The notes under the pieces were generated by a model that saw only the letters and a program-made list of their open reading frames with translations, had not been told where the DNA came from and made no database searches. This document shows, one piece after another, positions 40-18,181 of a stretch of 18,181 bases of DNA (the stretch's first letter is position 1; each line of letters begins with the position of its first letter). Source of the DNA: a virus (taxonomy: Duplodnaviria > Heunggongvirae > Uroviricota > Caudoviricetes); IMG/VR virus record IMGVR_UViG_2869953405_000003. The stretch is one strand, 5' to 3'. A program made the translations under genes and the position numbers.

Positions 40-402
40 GGGGCTGATTCTGGATTCGACGGGATTTGCGAAACCCAAGGTGCATGCCGAGGGGCGGTTG
101 GCCTCGTAAAAAGCCGCAAAAAATAGTCGCAAACGACGAAAACTACGCTTTAGCAGCTTAATAACCTGCTTAGAGCCCTCTCTCCCTAGCCTCCGCTCTT
201 AGGACGGGGATCAAGAGAGGTCAAACCCAAAAGAGATCGCGTGGAAGCCCTGCCTGGGGTTGAAGCGTTAAAACTTAATCAGGCTAGTTTGTTAGTGGCG
301 TGTCCGTCCGCAGCTGGCAAGCGAATGTAAAGACTGACTAAGCATGTAGTACCGAGGATGTAGGAATTTCGGACGCGGGTTCAACTCCCGCCAGCTCCAC
401 CA
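40..402 (+). ncRNA. ssrA: tmRNA (SsrA), complete 363-nt gene ending in CCA
   Basis: Sequence from GGGGCTGATTCTGGATTCGAC through GGTTCAACTCCCGCCAGCTCCACCA matches the enterobacterial tmRNA as I recall it. The tag reading frame GCA AAC GAC GAA AAC TAC GCT TTA GCA GCT TAA (ANDENYALAA) lies at 129..161. Confidence 0.95.
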
Positions 403-5126: not shown

Positions 5127-5181
5127 GGTGATGCTGCCAACTTACTGATTTAGTGTATGATGGTGTTTTTGAGGTGCTCCA

Positions 5182-5457
5182 GTGGCTTCTGTTTCTATCA
5201 GCTGTCCCTCCTGTTCAGCTACTGACGGGGTGGTGCGTAACGGCAAAAGCACTGCCGGACATCAGCGCTATCTCTGCTCTCACTGCCGTAAAACATGGCA
5301 ACTGCAGTTCACTTACACCGCTTCTCAACCCGGTACGCACCAGAAAATCATTGATATGGCCATGAATGGCGTTGGATGCCGGGCAACTGCACGCATTATG
5401 GGCGTTGGCCTCAACACGATTTTACGTCACTTAAAAAACTCAGGCCGCAGTCGGTAA
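5182..5457 (+). CDS. insA: IS1 InsA
   Basis: 91-aa [46 protein letters not shown]..., the canonical IS1 InsA. Confidence 0.95.
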
Positions 5458-5879
5458 CCTCGCGCATACAGCCGGGCAGTGACGTCATCGTCTGCGCGGA
5501 AATGGACGAACAGTGGGGCTATGTCGGGGCTAAATCGCGCCAGCGCTGGCTGTTTTACGCGTATGACAGTCTCCGGAAGACGGTTGTTGCGCACGTATTC
5601 GGTGAACGCACTATGGCGACGCTGGGGCGTCTTATGAGCCTGCTGTCACCCTTTGACGTGGTGATATGGATGACGGATGGCTGGCCGCTGTATGAATCCC
5701 GCCTGAAGGGAAAGCTGCACGTAATCAGCAAGCGATATACGCAGCGAATTGAGCGGCATAACCTGAATCTGAGGCAGCACCTGGCACGGCTGGGACGGAA
5801 GTCGCTGTCGTTCTCAAAATCGGTGGAGCTGCATGACAAAGTCATCGGGCATTATCTGAACATAAAACACTATCAATAA
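5376..5879 (+). CDS. insB: IS1 InsB frame (expressed as the InsAB' transposase by -1 frameshift)
   Basis: 167-aa ORF in the -1 frame overlapping the insA 3' end. A6C slippery run at 5433..5438. Confidence 0.9.
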
Positions 5880-5894
5880 GTTGGAGTCATTACC

Positions 5895-10312: not shown

Positions 10313-10327
10313 GGTAATGACTCCAAC

Positions 10328-10831
10328 TTATTGATAGTGTTTTATGTTCAGATAATGCCCGATGACTTTGTCATGCAGCTCCACCGATTTTGAGAACGAC
10401 AGCGACTTCCGTCCCAGCCGTGCCAGGTGCTGCCTCAGATTCAGGTTATGCCGCTCAATTCGCTGCGTATATCGCTTGCTGATTACGTGCAGCTTTCCCT
10501 TCAGGCGGGATTCATACAGCGGCCAGCCATCCGTCATCCATATCACCACGTCAAAGGGTGACAGCAGGCTCATAAGACGCCCCAGCGTCGCCATAGTGCG
10601 TTCACCGAATACGTGCGCAACAACCGTCTTCCGGAGACTGTCATACGCGTAAAACAGCCAGCGCTGGCGCGATTTAGCCCCGACATAGCCCCACTGTTCG
10701 TCCATTTCCGCGCAGACGATGACGTCACTGCCCGGCTGTATGCGCGAGGTTACCGACTGCGGCCTGAGTTTTTTAAGTGACGTAAAATCGTGTTGAGGCC
10801 AACGCCCATAATGCGTGCAGTTGCCCGGCAT
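10328..10831 (-). CDS. insB: IS1 InsB frame
   Basis: 167-aa ORF identical to the copy 1 InsB translation. Confidence 0.9.
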
Positions 10832-11025
10832 CCAACGCCATTCATGGCCATATCAATGATTTTCTGGTGCGTACCGGGTTGAGAAGCGGTGTAAGTGAAC
10901 TGCAGTTGCCATGTTTTACGGCAGTGAGAGCAGAGATAGCGCTGATGTCCGGCAGTGCTTTTGCCGTTACGCACCACCCCGTCAGTAGCTGAACAGGAGG
11001 GACAGCTGATAGAAACAGAAGCCAC
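10750..11025 (-). CDS. insA: IS1 InsA
   Basis: 91-aa ORF identical to the copy 1 InsA translation. Confidence 0.95.
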
Positions 11026-11080
11026 TGGAGCACCTCAAAAACACCATCATACACTAAATCAGTAAGTTGGCAGCATCACC

Positions 11081-11089
11081 GTTTTAACG
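11081..11089. repeat. 9-bp target-site duplication GTTTTAACG, second copy, IS1 copy 2
   Basis: Identical to 10304..10312. Confidence 0.9.
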
Positions 11090-11190
11090 TTACTAATAAA
11101 TCGTGAAACAATCTCCTCATTTGTTAGTATTTTCGCCTGAGCACAGCAAGAGGTTAATATTGCAACCGTCATTAAAAATGGCTTTATCAC
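11081..11190 (-). pseudogene. AT-rich putative lipoprotein moron, N-terminal part with signal peptide and lipobox
   Basis: My translation from GTG at 11190..11188 (GGAG 8 nt upstream) gives MIKPFLMTVAILTSCCAQAKILTNEEIVSRFISNVKT, with an L-T-S-C lipobox after a hydrophobic stretch. An alternative ATG start lies at 11172. The frame continues into 9931..10312 across the IS1 insertion. Confidence 0.5.
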
Positions 11191-11257
11191 AAAACAAACT
11201 CCATTGTTAGCATGTTACGCGATAATTTTGCCTCATCTTTCACCACAAAAAAAGAAC

Positions 11258-13207
11258 TCACCTTTTAAATGGAGAATACCCAACATCATGGGTGATTTTC
11301 ATAAAGGGATCGCCTGTTTTCGGCAAATCGATAACGCGCATTCCAGGCGGCGCGTTGTCAAACGTCACCTTAAGTTCGCTGCGGGTTGCCGGTGAAGATG
11401 CAAGGCTTAACAGCTGATTCCTTTCCAGTGATACATTCGGGGTGTAGCGTTTATCGGGAGATAAATACCCATCACCACGTGGCATCTGCCATCCGGTCAT
11501 GTCATAGACAAAATCATGGAACTGTTTGCCCCACTCGTCGAACTTATCATTCAGACCAAATCCACTGTTCAGTGCATCAGCCACAAAATTTTTAACAAGC
11601 CAGGGATGTGCTTTTTCAAACTCCTGCGCCATCATGCCCAGTTCAAGCAATCCACCAATCAGACTGATCTTTCCGAGGCCCTTTAATTTCAGCCCTGTTT
11701 TTCCTGCCGCCGTTGTCCATTGATTCTGGGCGACTGTTGCCGCACGAATACTTGCCACCGCCTTCACACCAATATACAGGGCAGAAACCGTTGCTATTGT
11801 TTTTACTGCCTGTTCCCATCCCCCCATTGCTCTGACAACCTGATCAACCTCCTGCCAGACTTTTTTCACAACCGGACCGACCGTTTCCCAGTTATCAATT
11901 ATGAGATATGCACCACCGACGAGAAGCGCAATTAATCCCTTTGCCGGCGTCATATTCATCACGCTACCCATGATTTTTGTTATGCGTGTCAATGTGCCAA
12001 TCGCCACGCCCATCGTCAGTAATGCCGCACCAGTTTTCGCGATGGTTTTTACGACCTCAGGATTTTCTCTGACAAACGTGCGCACTTCTTCCAGAAAAGG
12101 CTTCATCTCTTTTATGCCTTCATTGAGTGAAGGCAGGAAGGTTTCCCCCAGCGTGGAAGAAATCGCATTGATCTGGTTCTGCAGCAGCAACAACTGATTT
12201 TCTGTCGTCGCGGCACGGGCGGCATATTCTTTCTGCATTGAGCCGCCATACTGCTGCGCATCCGCCACACGATTAAAGTTGGTTCGCAACAAATCCAGAT
12301 TCGTGAGCAGCGGCGCAATGGCCCCCAGGGATTCCTTCCCGAACAGCGCTTTCAGCACAGCAGCCTGTTTTTCTTTCGGCACTTTTGCCAGAGAATCCAG
12401 TACGTGCAGCATGGCCCCGCGGGCGTCTTTCTGCATATCCGCCGCCAGTTTTTTCGGGCTAATGCGCAACGAGCGGAGCACTTTTTTCTGCGATTTGGTG
12501 GCAGAATCCCTCGCTGTCAGCGACAACATAAAATTCTTTATCCCCGTCGCAGCAATTTCTGACTCCACCCCCATTCCGGCAATGGTTGCCCCCATTGCGG
12601 CAATCTCTCCGGAGGCCACACCCGCAACACTGCCTAAAGGGCCAATACGGGTCACAACATCAGAAATCTTTTTCGCACTTGCAGGACCGGTATTACCAAG
12701 ATAGTTAATCTTATCCGCAAGCCCTGCCACCTCTCCCTGTGTCAGTTTAAAGGCAGTGCGCCACTGCGCCATCATCTGACCGGATTCTTCTGCCGTGGTG
12801 TCAAAGGCCACGCCCATCTTCACGGCATCGTCAGTAAACTGCATCAGCTCGTCACGGGCGATACCAGCCTGACCACCCGCCGCCACAATTTCGGCGATAC
12901 CTTCCGCCGACATGGGCAGTTCTGTTGACAGGTCGCGCACCTGCTCCGTCATTGCCTTAAACGCTTCCGGCGTATCCAGACCATCCACCACTTTCCGGAC
13001 ATCCGCCATTTTTGATTCAAGGGCAATGGCAGATTTGACCGGGAGCGCCAGCGCCCCCAGTACTGCGGTTCCGGCACCCGCTGCGCCCAGTAACAGGCTG
13101 GCAAACTCCTTTTTAAAACCTTTCAGCTGGCGCTGCATTCCCTTCAGCGGTGCCGATACCTTATCCACGGCAGTGATGATCGCCTTCAGCTGAAAACTGT
13201 CAGCCAT
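11258..13207 (-). CDS. tail tape measure protein
   Basis: 649-aa ORF, Ala/Gly-rich with long predicted helical stretches, immediately downstream of the tail chaperone gene. ATG at 13207 follows the chaperone frameshift extension. Confidence 0.8.
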   Translation of the reverse strand: MADSFQLKAIITAVDKVSAPLKGMQRQLKGFKKEFASLLLGAAGAGTAVLGALALPVKSAIALESKMADVRKVVDGLDTPEAFKAMTEQVRDLSTELPMSAEGIAEIVAAGGQAGIARDELMQFTDDAVKMGVAFDTTAEESGQMMAQWRTAFKLTQGEVAGLADKINYLGNTGPASAKKISDVVTRIGPLGSVAGVASGEIAAMGATIAGMGVESEIAATGIKNFMLSLTARDSATKSQKKVLRSLRISPKKLAADMQKDARGAMLHVLDSLAKVPKEKQAAVLKALFGKESLGAIAPLLTNLDLLRTNFNRVADAQQYGGSMQKEYAARAATTENQLLLLQNQINAISSTLGETFLPSLNEGIKEMKPFLEEVRTFVRENPEVVKTIAKTGAALLTMGVAIGTLTRITKIMGSVMNMTPAKGLIALLVGGAYLIIDNWETVGPVVKKVWQEVDQVVRAMGGWEQAVKTIATVSALYIGVKAVASIRAATVAQNQWTTAAGKTGLKLKGLGKISLIGGLLELGMMAQEFEKAHPWLVKNFVADALNSGFGLNDKFDEWGKQFHDFVYDMTGWQMPRGDGYLSPDKRYTPNVSLERNQLLSLASSPATRSELKVTFDNAPPGMRVIDLPKTGDPFMKITHDVGYSPFKR

Positions 13208-13364
13208 GCTTCATCTCCTCGTTAATGCGGACGGCCTCGGCTTCCAGTTCTGTAAACTGCGAAACAGCCCCCCGTCGCAGCTCCAGTGGATTCAGTTTCC
13301 AGAACCAGGCAACATTGTAGAGTCGTTTCCGGAGGTGCTTCCCGTCTCCGACTGGGTAAAAAAA
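13200..13364 (-). other. predicted -1 programmed frameshift extension of the tail assembly chaperone (lambda G/GT-like)
   Basis: T TTT TTT slippery heptamer at 13364..13358 lies in the zero frame of the chaperone (codons CGT TTT TTT = R F F). The -1 frame is open for 55 codons (YPVGDGKHLRKRLYNVAWFWKLNPLELRRGAVSQFTELEAEAVRINEEMKHG) and stops at 13202..13200, overlapping the tape-measure ATG. Confidence 0.55.
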
Positions 13365-13627
13365 CGCAGGATCTGCATGCTGGTCTTAAAAATATCCAGT
13401 TTTGCCATCTGCGCCGCCGATGAACGCGGGATCCCCGCCAGCAACGGGATATATTTCAGTGCCACCTGGCTGTCCAGTTTAATACTGCCTTCACCGGAAA
13501 TAATGAAAGGAAAACCCAGCGCCTCGATTTCGTCATACGTGGGCTCGCGCAACTCCAGCACATGCAGCATTTCGTTATGCGCTGTCACCGGTTTTTTTAA
13601 AACTATTTCTGTAACGTTCATTGCCAT
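13292..13627 (-). CDS. tail assembly chaperone (Mu gp41-like)
   Basis: 111-aa ORF between the tube and tape-measure genes. One-nucleotide overlap with the tube gene stop. Confidence 0.65.
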   Translation of the reverse strand: MAMNVTEIVLKKPVTAHNEMLHVLELREPTYDEIEALGFPFIISGEGSIKLDSQVALKYIPLLAGIPRSSAAQMAKLDIFKTSMQILRFFTQSETGSTSGNDSTMLPGSGN

Positions 13628-13983
13628 TACTGATACCCTCCCTCTTCGCCGTGGAATTCAAGATCTGCCGTGCCTTCTTCGGCATTATGATTAGCCTCTC
13701 CGTGCAGCCATGCCGCCGAAAGCACATACACCATGCCGTTTGCCAGCTCAGCGGTAATCGTCATCTGGTCTGAGGTGGTAATTTTGTCGACCGGAAAGTT
13801 TTTGGGCACTTTAAACGTGCCCTTAACGTAAGGTGACCGCCAGGTCTCCTTGTAATCCACATCCCCTGCCATGCCGACGATGTCATCCCGGACATTGGTG
13901 TTCATCGGCACTTCAATGCCACCTGTCAGCGATAACTGCTGACCATCCACTTTAAAAAAACAGGTTCCGGCGATCTTTGCCAT
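13627..13983 (-). CDS. tail tube protein (Mu M-like)
   Basis: 118-aa ORF immediately downstream of the sheath gene with a one-nucleotide overlap. Size matches contractile-tail tube proteins. Confidence 0.75.
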   Translation of the reverse strand: MAKIAGTCFFKVDGQQLSLTGGIEVPMNTNVRDDIVGMAGDVDYKETWRSPYVKGTFKVPKNFPVDKITTSDQMTITAELANGMVYVLSAAWLHGEANHNAEEGTADLEFHGEEGGYQ

Positions 13984-15479
13984 TATGCTGACTCCTCTGA
14001 ATACTGAAGACGGAACTGGTTAACCACCGCAAAGACACGTAACTGATTAACATAATCCGGCGGGAACAGCGTATTCAGTCGGTTCGGGTTATCTGCATCA
14101 CGCTCAACTATCAGATACTGTTTAAACAGATCGTAATTTTCCACAATACCGGCACGCTCCATCTGACGATATGTCGCCAGAAGTTCCCCTTTGATAACGG
14201 CAGGAGTGACAATCGCCTGCCCCGGACCAAAACGGGTACCATCATTTGCCAGCTTGTGACGTCCGTACTTGCTTGTGATGACCGATTTCAGTTTGCGAAG
14301 AACATATGCACTGGTATGCAGAGTTTCACTGTCCAGATAGCTGTTGTCTGCCACGCCATACGCATTCTTTTTGTAGGTGGTTACGGAACGCTGGATCTGC
14401 AACGTGCCGCCTTCCACATAAGCCGTCGCCACGCCGTGAGATAAAAGGGTCTGCTGCTCTGTCATGATGAATCGCTTACCTTTCGGTGCCGGAAGCATCC
14501 CCACCAGCTCCCCCGTCTGTGTCGGACGGGCAGGATCATTCCGGATAAATACCGCTTCACGGGCAAGGCGACTGGCAACCAGTTCATCGACAGGCGACTG
14601 GGTTTCTTTTTCGTAACCGGCAAGCGTGATATGTTGCTGATTATGCATATCTCCGGCACCAACCAGCTCTGACAGCGTTCCCAGTTTTGCGGTATAGCCA
14701 TGCCCGTATAACTGGCGCGCATAACTCCAGCGACCGCTGCTGTCATTCATTTCGGTCATCATCATATTGATGGAGGCGGCATCGTTGAACGGCAGACCGA
14801 TAAAGTCGAATGCCTCATCGCCCATAGCAGCAACAGCGGCGGTAAGATCAGGCGCTCCGCTACCGGCAGCACCGACTTCCGTCACCACCCGAAGCCCTGC
14901 TGGCAGAATCTCACCACCACCAGAACCATAATAATTCAGACAGACCGGTAACTCATTACCATACAGCCCCTTATGACGGGCAGTCAGCGTCACCACACCT
15001 GCATCAGATGACGCCGTAAACGGCAGGGTGATAACCCCGTTTACCGCTTCCTTAATCGCGGTGGCAACCGCAGTGGCATCATCGCCATTCACCACAGGCA
15101 CCTGTACACGGGAGCGCCCGACATACAGACTCAGGGTGCCGCTTTCCTCTGCTTCTCCGGCAACCGTCACCCTGACCGTCGCCGCCGCCCCTCTGGCTTC
15201 CGGTACTGCAATAACATACAGTTCACCGAAAGGATCTGTCTGACGGTAGACTTCCACCATACGCGCCAGCTGGCTCCCCGCCCCACAAATCTGGCGGGCA
15301 TAATCTGCCGATGGCATCAGCACCAGGCTGTTAACCTCAATGGCTGCATCGTTGCTGGCATGCCCGATCAGTAATGCAGGCGCGCTGGTCACCGCTGTAT
15401 TTGCCGCAGAATTGTTCATCTCGGCGTAGAACAACGGCACCAGCGTATTCGACGGAACAGTATTAAAACTTATCGTCAT
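13983..15479 (-). CDS. tail sheath protein (Mu L-like)
   Basis: 498-aa ORF, the largest structural gene before the tube gene. Size and position match Mu-type sheath proteins. The start ATG is 19 nt from the IS600-like element end. Confidence 0.8.
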   Translation of the reverse strand: MTISFNTVPSNTLVPLFYAEMNNSAANTAVTSAPALLIGHASNDAAIEVNSLVLMPSADYARQICGAGSQLARMVEVYRQTDPFGELYVIAVPEARGAAATVRVTVAGEAEESGTLSLYVGRSRVQVPVVNGDDATAVATAIKEAVNGVITLPFTASSDAGVVTLTARHKGLYGNELPVCLNYYGSGGGEILPAGLRVVTEVGAAGSGAPDLTAAVAAMGDEAFDFIGLPFNDAASINMMMTEMNDSSGRWSYARQLYGHGYTAKLGTLSELVGAGDMHNQQHITLAGYEKETQSPVDELVASRLAREAVFIRNDPARPTQTGELVGMLPAPKGKRFIMTEQQTLLSHGVATAYVEGGTLQIQRSVTTYKKNAYGVADNSYLDSETLHTSAYVLRKLKSVITSKYGRHKLANDGTRFGPGQAIVTPAVIKGELLATYRQMERAGIVENYDLFKQYLIVERDADNPNRLNTLFPPDYVNQLRVFAVVNQFRLQYSEESA

Positions 15480-15541
15480 GATTTTTTAGCCTTATCCTTG
15501 AGGTGTACTGGCAATAGCGGACACTACCATTTGTTCTTTTT

Positions 15542-16360
15542 TTAAGCAGCCATCTGATGATATTTTTCCCTGAAGGCTGCCGGGGAGATATTCCCCAGAC
15601 GAGAGTGACGACGCTGACGATTGTAGAAAATCTCAATGTATTCCCGTATTACTGAGATGGCTTCATCCCGGTTATTAAAACGATAGTGGCTCAGGCTCTC
15701 ATTTTTCAGCGTTCCCCAGAAGCTTTCCATCGGAGCGTTGTCGTAACAGTTACCTTTACGCGACATTGATGTTTTCAGACCAGACTGCTCCTGTATGACC
15801 CGGTAATCGTATGCGCAGTACTGTGAACCTCGATCAGAGTGGTGGATTAGCCCGGCAGGTGGGCGCTGGCTCCTGAGCGCCATAAACAGGGCTTTACCTG
15901 TCAGCTCTTTTGTCATGCGCTCTCCCATGGCGTAGCCGACAATTTCGCACGTATAAACATCTTTGATGCCAGCGAGGTACAACCATCCCTCCTGTGTGGC
16001 AACATACGTCAGGTCCGCCACCCAGACCTGATTTGGTGCTGTAGGAGCGAACGTCTGGTTCAGCAGATTTGGCGCAACTGGCAGATTGTGGTTCGAGTTC
16101 GTAGTCGCTCTGAACTTGCGTTTCTGCTTACAGCGTAGCCTTAGCTCCTTACGAAGACGTGCCAGTCGGTCACGACCAACGATGATGCCATTCTCTGCCA
16201 GCTCCGTCTGGTGCCGCCGGGTTCCATATGTTTCGCGAGTGCGGATATGTGCCACCTTAATCTCCAGTTTTAGCCGCTCATCACTTTGTTTTCTGTCTGA
16301 GGGTTCATGCTGTACCCAGTTGTAATAACCGCTCCTGGATACACCAAATACCTGACACAT
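15542..16360 (-). CDS. IS3-family transposase OrfB (DDE integrase domain)
   Basis: 272-aa ORF with the usual IS3-family OrfB layout, including ...HHSDRGSQY... and ...YDNAPMESFWGTLK... motifs. Confidence 0.9.
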   Translation of the reverse strand: MCQVFGVSRSGYYNWVQHEPSDRKQSDERLKLEIKVAHIRTRETYGTRRHQTELAENGIIVGRDRLARLRKELRLRCKQKRKFRATTNSNHNLPVAPNLLNQTFAPTAPNQVWVADLTYVATQEGWLYLAGIKDVYTCEIVGYAMGERMTKELTGKALFMALRSQRPPAGLIHHSDRGSQYCAYDYRVIQEQSGLKTSMSRKGNCYDNAPMESFWGTLKNESLSHYRFNNRDEAISVIREYIEIFYNRQRRHSRLGNISPAAFREKYHQMAA

Positions 16361-16409
16361 CGCTTCAATGGGAAATTGTTGTCGCCATTGTTCGATTAAC
16401 GCGTATTTT

Positions 16410-16697
16410 TCAGCGACTCCTGTGCAAAATACGCTGTTGCTTTTTTAATATATCTCGCTCAAGGCGAGCTTCATTTAACGCCTTACGCAGTTGCAGAATT
16501 TCAGATTCCAGTTCAGCCACCGTGCGGGAACCAGGAGTACCGAGCCCTTTTCTGGCGGCGGTAACCCATTGTCCTAAAGTGCCTTCAGGAAGAGATAATC
16601 GGGAAGCGCCTTCACTGATCGAAAGTTGATTTTCAAGAACCGTTCTGACAGCTTCGGCTTTGAACTCTTTAGAGTAACGTTGGGTTTTTCTGCTCAT
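16410..16697 (-). CDS. IS3-family transposase OrfA (helix-turn-helix / leucine zipper), C-terminus altered
   Basis: 95-aa ORF MSRKTQRYSKEFKAEAV... ending ILKKQQRILHRSR. The expected family C-terminus ATAYFAQESLKNTR is encoded in the -1 frame immediately after the A6G heptamer at 16446..16440. Confidence 0.85.
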   Translation of the reverse strand: MSRKTQRYSKEFKAEAVRTVLENQLSISEGASRLSLPEGTLGQWVTAARKGLGTPGSRTVAELESEILQLRKALNEARLERDILKKQQRILHRSR

Positions 16698-16758
16698 TAT
16701 TAGCTCCTTCTGATGCCATTCTATTTCAGGAAGGAGCGTCCGTTAAACTCAGGCTACC

Positions 16759-17157
16759 TCAGTCTTTCAGGACGTACCCAATAGAAAGGCCGGTTAACGA
16801 ACCGGCCTTCATGTGTGCATGTGCACGTTTTGCGAGGGGATCATCATCAATAAGCAACCGTCCCCTGACGTAAAGCCCGACATCGTCTTCCTTCATTTCG
16901 GTGTAAACACCGATGGGTTCATCCATGCGGTGCTGCCAGAGCAGCGCAGGTAACGCTTTTCTGTCACTCCACGCCCGCAGGGAAGCAGCAAATGCCCCGG
17001 ACATCACCACATCATCGTGGCTGTCCTTTACACCAAAGACGGAGCCATACCCTTCAAACTCACCGGAGTCACTGACAGATTTCAGACTCAGCGGTACATC
17101 AAGACGTTGTTTCGTCTGCATTGGCGTTATCCTTCTGCTTACCGGCCTTACTGCCAT
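16759..17157 (-). pseudogene. prohead maturation protease (HK97-type), C-terminally truncated by the IS600-like element
   Basis: 132-aa ORF with the motif layout EGYGSVFGVKDSHDDVVMSGAFAASL...LWQH...GLSIGY as I recall it for this protease family. Its stop codon TGA is the first three bases of the IS inverted repeat (16761..16759). Confidence 0.7.
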
Positions 17158-17211
17158 CGGAGGGTTTCGTGGTCATGTTCATCGGTGTGAGATAGACATC
17201 ACCACCGGGAC

Positions 17212-18181
17212 TAATGCCAGTCAGTTAAGCAACTGACTGGCTCTTTTTCGGGGCTGTGGGGTATTTCCAGGGCCTCTCCTTTACCACTCTCGGGAAGGCC
17301 CTTTCCCTTCTCGTCGGTAATTTCACAAGTTGTCCCATACTTGCAAGATCGCGCATCAGCTCCGGTATACGTCCCGGTGAAGCGCCCTGCAATGTCATCA
17401 GCATTCTCATCACCATTCCGCATGATTCTGAGAAACTCAGTTGATTCGGCCAGTAACCTTTCAGATGTTCCGCCATTTTAATCATCTGATATCTCACCAG
17501 ATTATAAGCCAGTAAGACACCCCACAGCTCTTGCTCCACAAGCTCCGGCTTTTTACTTCTCAGCGTCAGCCTGCTCAGTTGCATCGTCTGTTTTATCTCC
17601 CTGTATCCCAGTTCGATTTCCCAGCGATGACTGTACAGATCCGCCATTTCTCCTCCGGGGAAGCGCATGGCGTCCGTCATCGACGTCAGCAGATGGCAGA
17701 CTTTTCCTTTGCGCGTCACGGTCAGCAGGCGGGCTGTCACTTCATTTCCCAGTCCCGGCCACTTTTTTCGTGCCTGCGGGCTGGTTTTCAGCTTCACCAG
17801 ATGATCGCCTTTACCCAGTTTTCTGAGCTCTTCATATTGCGCTCCCTTTCTGAGAGGTATCATCCAGTGGCGGTGTTCTCCCGCCAGGCTCCAGGCATTT
17901 AACAGTCCCAGTGAGTAATAACCTTTATCCATTAACGTCAGAGTGTTATCGCCGGTTTGTTCTATAAGTTGCTCAGCAAGCTCATTTTCGCTGTTCTTCA
18001 TCGTGCCGAAGGCTGCAGCCGTCAGCAGATGGCTGGTCAGTTCCATCTGGCAGACCATTTTGACCTGCGGGTAGAGCGCCGGGTTCCCGGCATGTGTCTG
18101 GCGGGGGAAGGCTGCATCGTTCTCTGGTGTATCCGGTGTGCGCCAGAACACACCATCGATGGCCAGCAGGGCAGGCCGCAC
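17212..18181 (-). mobile_element. IS4, partial (runs off the window edge); inner boundary approximate
   Basis: Contains the C-terminal 318 aa of an IS4-type transposase. A perfect 11-bp inverted repeat GCCAGTCAGTT / AACTGACTGGC at 17216..17241 overlaps the stop codon. The boundary near 17212 is inferred, not verified. Confidence 0.7.
17225..18181 (-). CDS. IS4 transposase, N-terminally truncated by the window edge
   Basis: 318-aa partial ORF ...[49 protein letters not shown]..., recognised from memory as IS4-family. Confidence 0.85.

Follow-up and report, generated by a model that had tools for sequence, protein, structure and literature searches.

Organization of the prophage remnant

The window, by which we mean the whole 18,181-nucleotide (nt) stretch of DNA analysed here, is a piece of the Shigella sonnei chromosome that carries a decayed prophage. 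All genes of the region described below lie on the minus strand. The intact tail sheath gene (positions 13983 to 15479, minus strand; 498 amino acids; Pfam Phage_sheath_1, Phage_sheath_1C and Phage_sheath_domII) has its ATG at 15479, 19 nt away from a copy of the insertion sequence IS600. A preliminary description of this DNA gave the distance correctly. The 19 nt are not intergenic spacer but coding sequence, from the 3′ end of a DUF2635 gene. The last seven codons and the stop of this gene (positions 15476 to 15498, minus strand) overlap the sheath ATG and map to nucleotides 19700–19722 of the prophage of E. coli FDAARGOS_944 (L020), a near-identical relative in which the DUF2635 coding sequence spans 19700–19861 (PF10948).

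On the other side of IS600 lies a truncated HK97-type prohead protease gene (positions 16759 to 17121, minus strand), which comparison with the full-length protease of L020 delimits to codons 1 to 120 of 216. The coding remainder covers 16762 to 17121, and the TGA stop (16759 to 16761) consists of the three outermost bases of the IS600 terminus. The IS-derived stop had been recognized in the preliminary description, which placed the cut after 132 codons; that open reading frame (ORF) starts at an upstream ATG overlapping the portal gene, and 120 codons are real. Peptidase_S78 matches the product at profile positions 6 to 115 of 165 only, so that a full-length protease domain is not present, and the remnant is a pseudogene stub. 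Both genes bordering IS600 are partial, the protease retaining 120 of 216 codons and the DUF2635 gene 7 of 53.

The 5′ end of the protease gene is followed by a 113-nt 3′ remnant of the portal gene (positions 17099 to 17211, minus strand), identified from the 3′ piece of the L020 portal gene (23571–23732), within which the match ends at 23683; the annotations of SfIV and SfII agree. The portal gene is cut by an IS4 element (positions 17212 to 18181, minus strand; DDE_Tnp_1), of which 970 of 1,426 bp are contained in the window before it runs past the window end, and which is 99.2–99.4% identical to IS4. The ORF at 17225 to 18181 is the IS4 transposase and not a phage gene, and chromosomal bamD lies beyond IS4. 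The surviving head-region DNA is a 450-bp island between IS4 and IS600, and the preliminary description had missed that the protease fragment is such an island, with IS4 on its other side. The terminase, most of the portal, capsid, connector, head-completion and tail-terminator genes are absent from the window, which does not contain a complete phiP27-like morphogenesis module. Two IS1 copies interrupt the tail region, one (positions 5127 to 5894) splitting the baseplate J gene and the other (positions 10313 to 11080) interrupting a hypothetical ORF flanked by the tape-measure and DNA-circularization genes; given these insertions, the tail module is likewise non-functional.

The element between the sheath and protease genes (positions 15499 to 16761, minus strand; 1,263 bp) has its IRR at the sheath side and its IRL at the protease side, terminal sequences TGAGGTGTAC... 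and ...GGCTACCTCA, and transposase genes on the minus strand. Its imperfect inverted repeats, TGAGGTGTACTGG... and ...CAGGCTACCTCA, end in 5′-TG...CA-3′ and are complementary at the outermost 6 nt and at scattered inner positions. The copy is 99.8–100% identical, with one 1-nt gap, to its counterparts at this locus in other S. sonnei and ~99% identical to E. coli elements that carry the annotation ‘IS3-like element IS600’; this near-identity across the full ~1,264 bp identifies it, on sequence grounds, as IS600 of the IS3 family. Its orfB ORF (positions 15542 to 16360, minus strand; 272 amino acids) encodes an rve integrase core (Pfam), and its orfA (positions 16410 to 16697, minus strand) encodes an HTH_Tnp_1 protein (Pfam) of 95 amino acids, compared with 100 in other strains. 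IS600 is annotated with a programmed frameshift in other strains, and the slippery A-run at the frameshift site (positions 16441 to 16446, minus strand) has six bases (A6) in the window and in CP104423.1, against seven (A7) in Ss046 and a further seven strains, which makes the window copy one base shorter than the usual 1,264 bp. The A6 run shortens OrfA to 95 amino acids and leaves orfB in a frame that −1 slippage would not reach; it may denote an inactivated copy or a homopolymer sequencing error. In the same assembly, the IS4 transposase is likewise fragmented, into ORFs of 41, 77 and 318 amino acids.

The IS600 junction in relatives and in Shigella sonnei

The triplets flanking IS600 are CCT on the sheath side (positions 15496 to 15498), where the intact relative reads TTATCCT/GTTTAAC, and GTC on the protease side (positions 16762 to 16764), where it reads TTCCCA/GTCTTTC. 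The two have no base in common, and a 3-bp target duplication is thus absent, as the preliminary description had stated. A second, strain-specific IS600 in the same prophage of S. sonnei CP151301.1 ends in the same terminal sequences and is flanked by a GTC/GTC duplication; its empty site is visible in Ss046 as a single GTC. Among four E. coli control copies, three have perfect 3-bp duplications (ATA, GGG and GAA), and the remaining one is nested against another IS600 fragment, so that the duplication is present in four of the five controls. Because these independent copies with the same termini show 3-bp duplications, the IS600 ends in the window are correctly placed, which rules out offset ends hiding a repeat; the intact sequence at both breakpoints holds no hidden repeat either. 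The absent duplication is thus a real peculiarity of the window copy. A duplication is a property of the insertion event and not of the element, and its absence marks a later rearrangement. Both IS1 copies in the window have perfect 9-bp duplications (TGCGCCCCC and GTTTTAACG) and are therefore simple insertions, so the lack of a duplication is specific to IS600.

The alignment to an intact related prophage, which the preliminary description had proposed, was made with L020. This relative was recovered from complete E. coli genomes by a query spanning IS600 (window 11081 to 17211); it occupies about 625.7–658 kb of the FDAARGOS_944 chromosome (NZ_CP065613.1). Window positions 11081 to 15036 are 99.8% identical to L020, positions 15026 to 15498 are 100% identical with the match ending at L020 19722, and positions 16762 to 17211 are 99.6% identical with the match starting at L020 23234. 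The three matches are colinear, and both IS600 flanks lie on the same strand and match as far as the base that adjoins each IS end. L020 19723–23233 (NZ_CP065613.1 640531–644041; 3,511 bp) is the interval missing from the window, with breakpoints between 19722 and 19723 and between 23233 and 23234. From the protease side, it contains protease codons 121 to 216, the major capsid gene (408 amino acids, PF05065) and the head–tail connector gene (PF05135), followed towards the sheath by the head-completion gene (PF05521), a gene for a 174-residue hypothetical protein, the tail-terminator gene (PF23840) and the DUF2635 gene except for its last seven codons. Colinear flanks, breakpoints at the IS termini and the absence of the interval together point to an IS-associated deletion.

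This gene content bears out the earlier expectation that capsid and head-completion genes lie between protease and sheath in an intact phage; the separate scaffold gene also expected there is not found in the interval, the head being of the HK97 type. A natural adjacency of protease and sheath is ruled out, because the module between them is kept in phiP27, SfII, SfIV, L020 and five other E. coli prophages (L012, L013 and L017–L019).

The FDAARGOS_944 prophage is inserted elsewhere in the chromosome, close to zinT and ipaH, and is a close relative of the S. sonnei prophage, not its direct ancestor. It is decaying too: ISEc60 copies lie in its sheath and portal genes (L020 17956–19250 and 23733–25025), the one in the sheath gene flanked by an 11-bp duplication that corresponds to window positions 15026 to 15036, and its terminase and Q genes are frameshifted. 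As it carries ipaH, FDAARGOS_944 may belong to an enteroinvasive (EIEC) or Shigella-like lineage.

GTDB includes S. sonnei in its E. coli species cluster. The junction-specific 120-residue protease product is indexed in 674 collection blocks, of which 60 have contigs longer than 1 Mb, and all ten places listed share the same context, in which rluD–bamD is followed by IS4, the 450-bp island, IS600 and the sheath gene. A lookup of the 132-residue ORF product gave no match, gene callers using the 120-residue start. Since the stub is indexed in 674 blocks, the junction is not an assembly artefact. The exact sheath protein accompanies the stub in many complete 4.8–5.0-Mb genomes, including CP000038.1 (Ss046) and CP019689.1 (75/02), both named as S. 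sonnei (Ss046, CP000038.1; 75/02, CP019689; PMC5447701). LR213449.1 shares the oddities of the window, namely the 95-residue OrfA, the 318-residue IS4 ORF and a unique tail-fibre protein, and is probably the genome from which the window comes. The junction is fixed in all sampled S. sonnei and the event is ancestral to them; together with the 120-residue protease stub, it provides a stable marker in all sampled S. sonnei.

Origin of the junction

Very probably, a phiP27-like prophage lost its head/neck block through a two-step deletion associated with IS600. The starting point would have been a temperate myovirus prophage of the phiP27 type, with an HK97-type head and a Mu-type tail, that acquired IS600 in an ancestor of S. 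sonnei. In the first step, IS600 would have inserted simply, with a 3-bp duplication, either at protease codon 120 or at the 3′ end of the DUF2635 gene. The second step was the loss from this locus of 3,511 bp, stretching from one IS end to a second site, which left a single IS600 whose flanks, CCT and GTC, derive from two different target sites. This loss could have been an adjacent deletion made by the transposase, with one IS end attacking a target close by on its own DNA, a route to which we give an even chance; it could also have followed a second IS600 insertion in the same orientation, with homologous recombination between the two copies, which we consider possible at a little under an even chance. 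The final product is identical for both routes. The outcome is a headless, dead prophage in which the protease stub with its IS-derived TGA, IS600 and the sheath gene follow one another in one orientation. The deletion is part of a general IS-driven decay of the prophage, which includes the IS4 insertion in the portal gene and the two IS1 insertions in tail genes.

The aligned sequences show one IS600 with transposase-precise joints to two sites of one prophage, and 3,511 bp lost at the locus. The IS-associated deletion of the capsid module suggested in the preliminary description is thereby supported, by the colinear L020 flanks and the absent block, with strict adjacent deletion and two-copy recombination yielding the same product. 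The search that it had proposed for relatives with IS600 and an intact duplication at one junction returned none: IS600 was found at neither junction in 5,426 complete E. coli genomes, and an intermediate with IS600 at one site only and an intact duplication was found neither among these genomes nor among the S. sonnei places examined, all of which are already in the final state. We therefore infer the order of events and the route of the second step. In an E. coli long-term evolution experiment, 14 of 83 IS movements came with deletions, all of them involving IS150, another IS3-family element (PMC11708052); all 14 events lacked a duplication and were traced to an IS already in place, from which an adjacent deletion then arose (PMC11708052; see also PMC4173774), and an artificial orfA–orfB fusion gave a higher rate of adjacent deletions (PMC11708052; PMC4173774). 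IS-mediated deletion and rearrangement are an accepted mode of Shigella genome decay, with IS600 among the five expanded IS (PMC7373316).

An alternative reading is a junction of two prophages, formed by recombination between an IS600 in an SfII/SfIV-like prophage on the protease side and an IS600 in a phiP27-like prophage on the sheath side. The best phage matches of the two flanks do differ: the 450-bp fragment is 99.6% identical to SfIV and only 82.6% to phiP27, whereas the sheath gene is 96.4% identical to phiP27, 97% to the E. coli prophages L012 and L013, 99.8–100% to L020 and 76% to SfIV/SfII, and the tail side of the window as a whole is 94.6–96.6% identical to phiP27, about 77% to SfII/SfV and 97.3–100% to FDAARGOS_944. 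Moreover, the five E. coli prophages that share the window-type tail have proteases only 83–90% identical to that of the window, and S. sonnei contains several phiP27-like and SfIV-like remnants, with others of both kinds in 75/02 (PMC5447701). However, a single FDAARGOS_944 prophage contains the two flanks, 100% and 99.6% identical and in the same order and orientation, and this largely refutes the fusion. The L020 head region is itself mosaic, which accounts for the discordant best matches of the two flanks and does so without a second prophage: over the stretch that begins with the capsid gene and ends with the 3′ end of the portal gene (L020 21734–23732), it is about 90% identical to SfIV overall and 99.6% identical at the protease 5′ end, whereas for the neighbouring neck genes identity is only about 72% with SfIV but about 94% with phiP27. 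This phage lineage has a naturally mosaic head region, in which an Sf-like patch covers the surroundings of the portal/protease junction. A single ancestral prophage is the parsimonious source of both flanks, and a fusion of two is very unlikely indeed.

A relocation of the head module, by IS600-mediated inversions or by excision and reinsertion of an IS600-bounded 3.5-kb segment, is conceivable in genomes as strongly rearranged by IS as those of S. sonnei (PMC7373316), and the same locus offers a similar case in a 22-kb block between two direct IS4 copies with a 14-bp outer repeat. If the 3,511 bp had been relocated, they would be bounded by IS600, with reciprocal flanks ACCTCA-CCT-GTTTAACACG and GTATTCCCA-GTC-TGAGGTG and reciprocal junction strings ...ACCTCA/CCTGTTTAACACG and GTATTCCCAGTC/TGAGGTG.... 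The relocation needs more events than a deletion, a single IS600 lies between colinear flanks and there is no positive evidence for it; it is disfavoured by parsimony and very unlikely. The same end product, an IS centred in a deletion without a duplication, could also arise in one step, with IS600 captured in the double-strand break of an unrelated, spontaneous 3.5-kb deletion, as has been proposed for IS5 and IS481 (PMC11708052). Such a capture would make the locus a natural, species-fixed IS3-family example of the repair-associated IS insertion hypothesized in that study. We regard it as extremely doubtful, since all 14 IS150 events, from the same family, reflect a pre-existing IS and an adjacent deletion (PMC11708052), and since both junctions lie exactly at the IS600 termini, as expected of joints made by a transposase; an event this ancient and fixed cannot be dated to a single step. 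The probable homopolymer errors of the assembly (the short IS600 A-run and the IS4 transposase split into three ORFs) could raise suspicion of an artefact from collapsed repeats, but the same junction recurs in dozens of independent complete genomes and hundreds of draft assemblies. A naturally head-less, tailocin-like element with the protease natively beside the sheath would be at variance with the two bordering genes, both cut mid-ORF. For an artefact or such an element, the probability is close to nil. A tailocin or domesticated tail was also considered and rejected, as the baseplate J gene and an ORF of the tail region are broken by IS1 in every genome examined.

Related systems and chromosomal surroundings

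Classical adjacent deletions by IS1, IS903 and IS26 resemble the two-step deletion proposed here in that the IS is kept, flanking DNA is lost and the flanks are mismatched. They result from replicative transposition of the cointegrate type, whereas the IS3 family moves mainly by copy-out-paste-in via a circular intermediate, and the route to the deletion is therefore less certain for IS600. Closer parallels are the adjacent deletions of IS150, such as the losses of the rbs operon (PMC11708052; PMC4173774), which share the IS3 family, an endpoint at the IS terminus and the missing duplication. In the evolution experiment, these too removed a few kilobases of neighbouring DNA, with prophage genes as frequent casualties; they were, however, seen in real time with the pre-existing IS documented, whereas the S. 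sonnei event is ancient and species-fixed.

The junction also fits the IS-driven reduction of Shigella genomes by IS1, IS2, IS4, IS600 and IS911 (PMC7373316), with which it shares the organism, the IS families, the interruption of genes and IS-bounded deletions or rearrangements, and many Shigella IS sites were fixed before the species diversified (PMC7373316). That analysis was genome-wide and statistical and does not include this junction, whereas the locus described here is one base-resolved example, in which IS600 helped to dismantle a prophage in an ancestor of S. sonnei. The kind of event is already known; it is ordinary, well-documented IS-driven decay and implies no new mechanism or biology.

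In gene order, the remnant follows the Stx2e phage phiP27 and the FDAARGOS_944 prophage, in which terminase, portal, protease, capsid, connector, head-completion, tail-terminator, DUF2635, sheath, tube, tape-measure, baseplate and fibre genes succeed one another. Unlike these, the S. sonnei copy is missing all phage genes that precede the final 113 nt of the portal gene as well as the 3,511 bp, and contains IS4, IS600 and two IS1; FDAARGOS_944, in contrast, keeps the block and has ISEc60 in its sheath and portal genes. A PHAST analysis of S. sonnei 75/02 labelled CP019689.1 754998–812162 an ‘intact’ phiP27-like prophage (PMC5447701, Table 3). For this locus the label is wrong, as the terminase, capsid and neck genes are absent, and the region cannot make capsids.

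Two direct IS4 copies (window positions 17212 to 18181 and L009 6842–8267; L016 14014–15439) bound a block of ~22 kb, which contains the portal stub, the protease stub, IS600, the tail module, ssrA, smpB, ratA and ratB, and which sits between bamD and raiA, two genes that are neighbours in E. coli K-12. On their outer sides, both IS4 copies are flanked by the same 14-bp repeat, CAGCCCTTGAGCTG; it resembles part of a hairpin, probably the bamD terminator. The arrangement looks like a composite-transposon-like translocation or a reintegrated IS4-bounded circle that moved ssrA–smpB together with the prophage remnant. The transfer-messenger RNA (tmRNA) gene ssrA (positions 40 to 402, plus strand; tag ANDENYALAA) lies ~190 bp from the tail-fibre end of the remnant, which suggests that the phage integrated at the 3′ end of ssrA with its fibre genes proximal.
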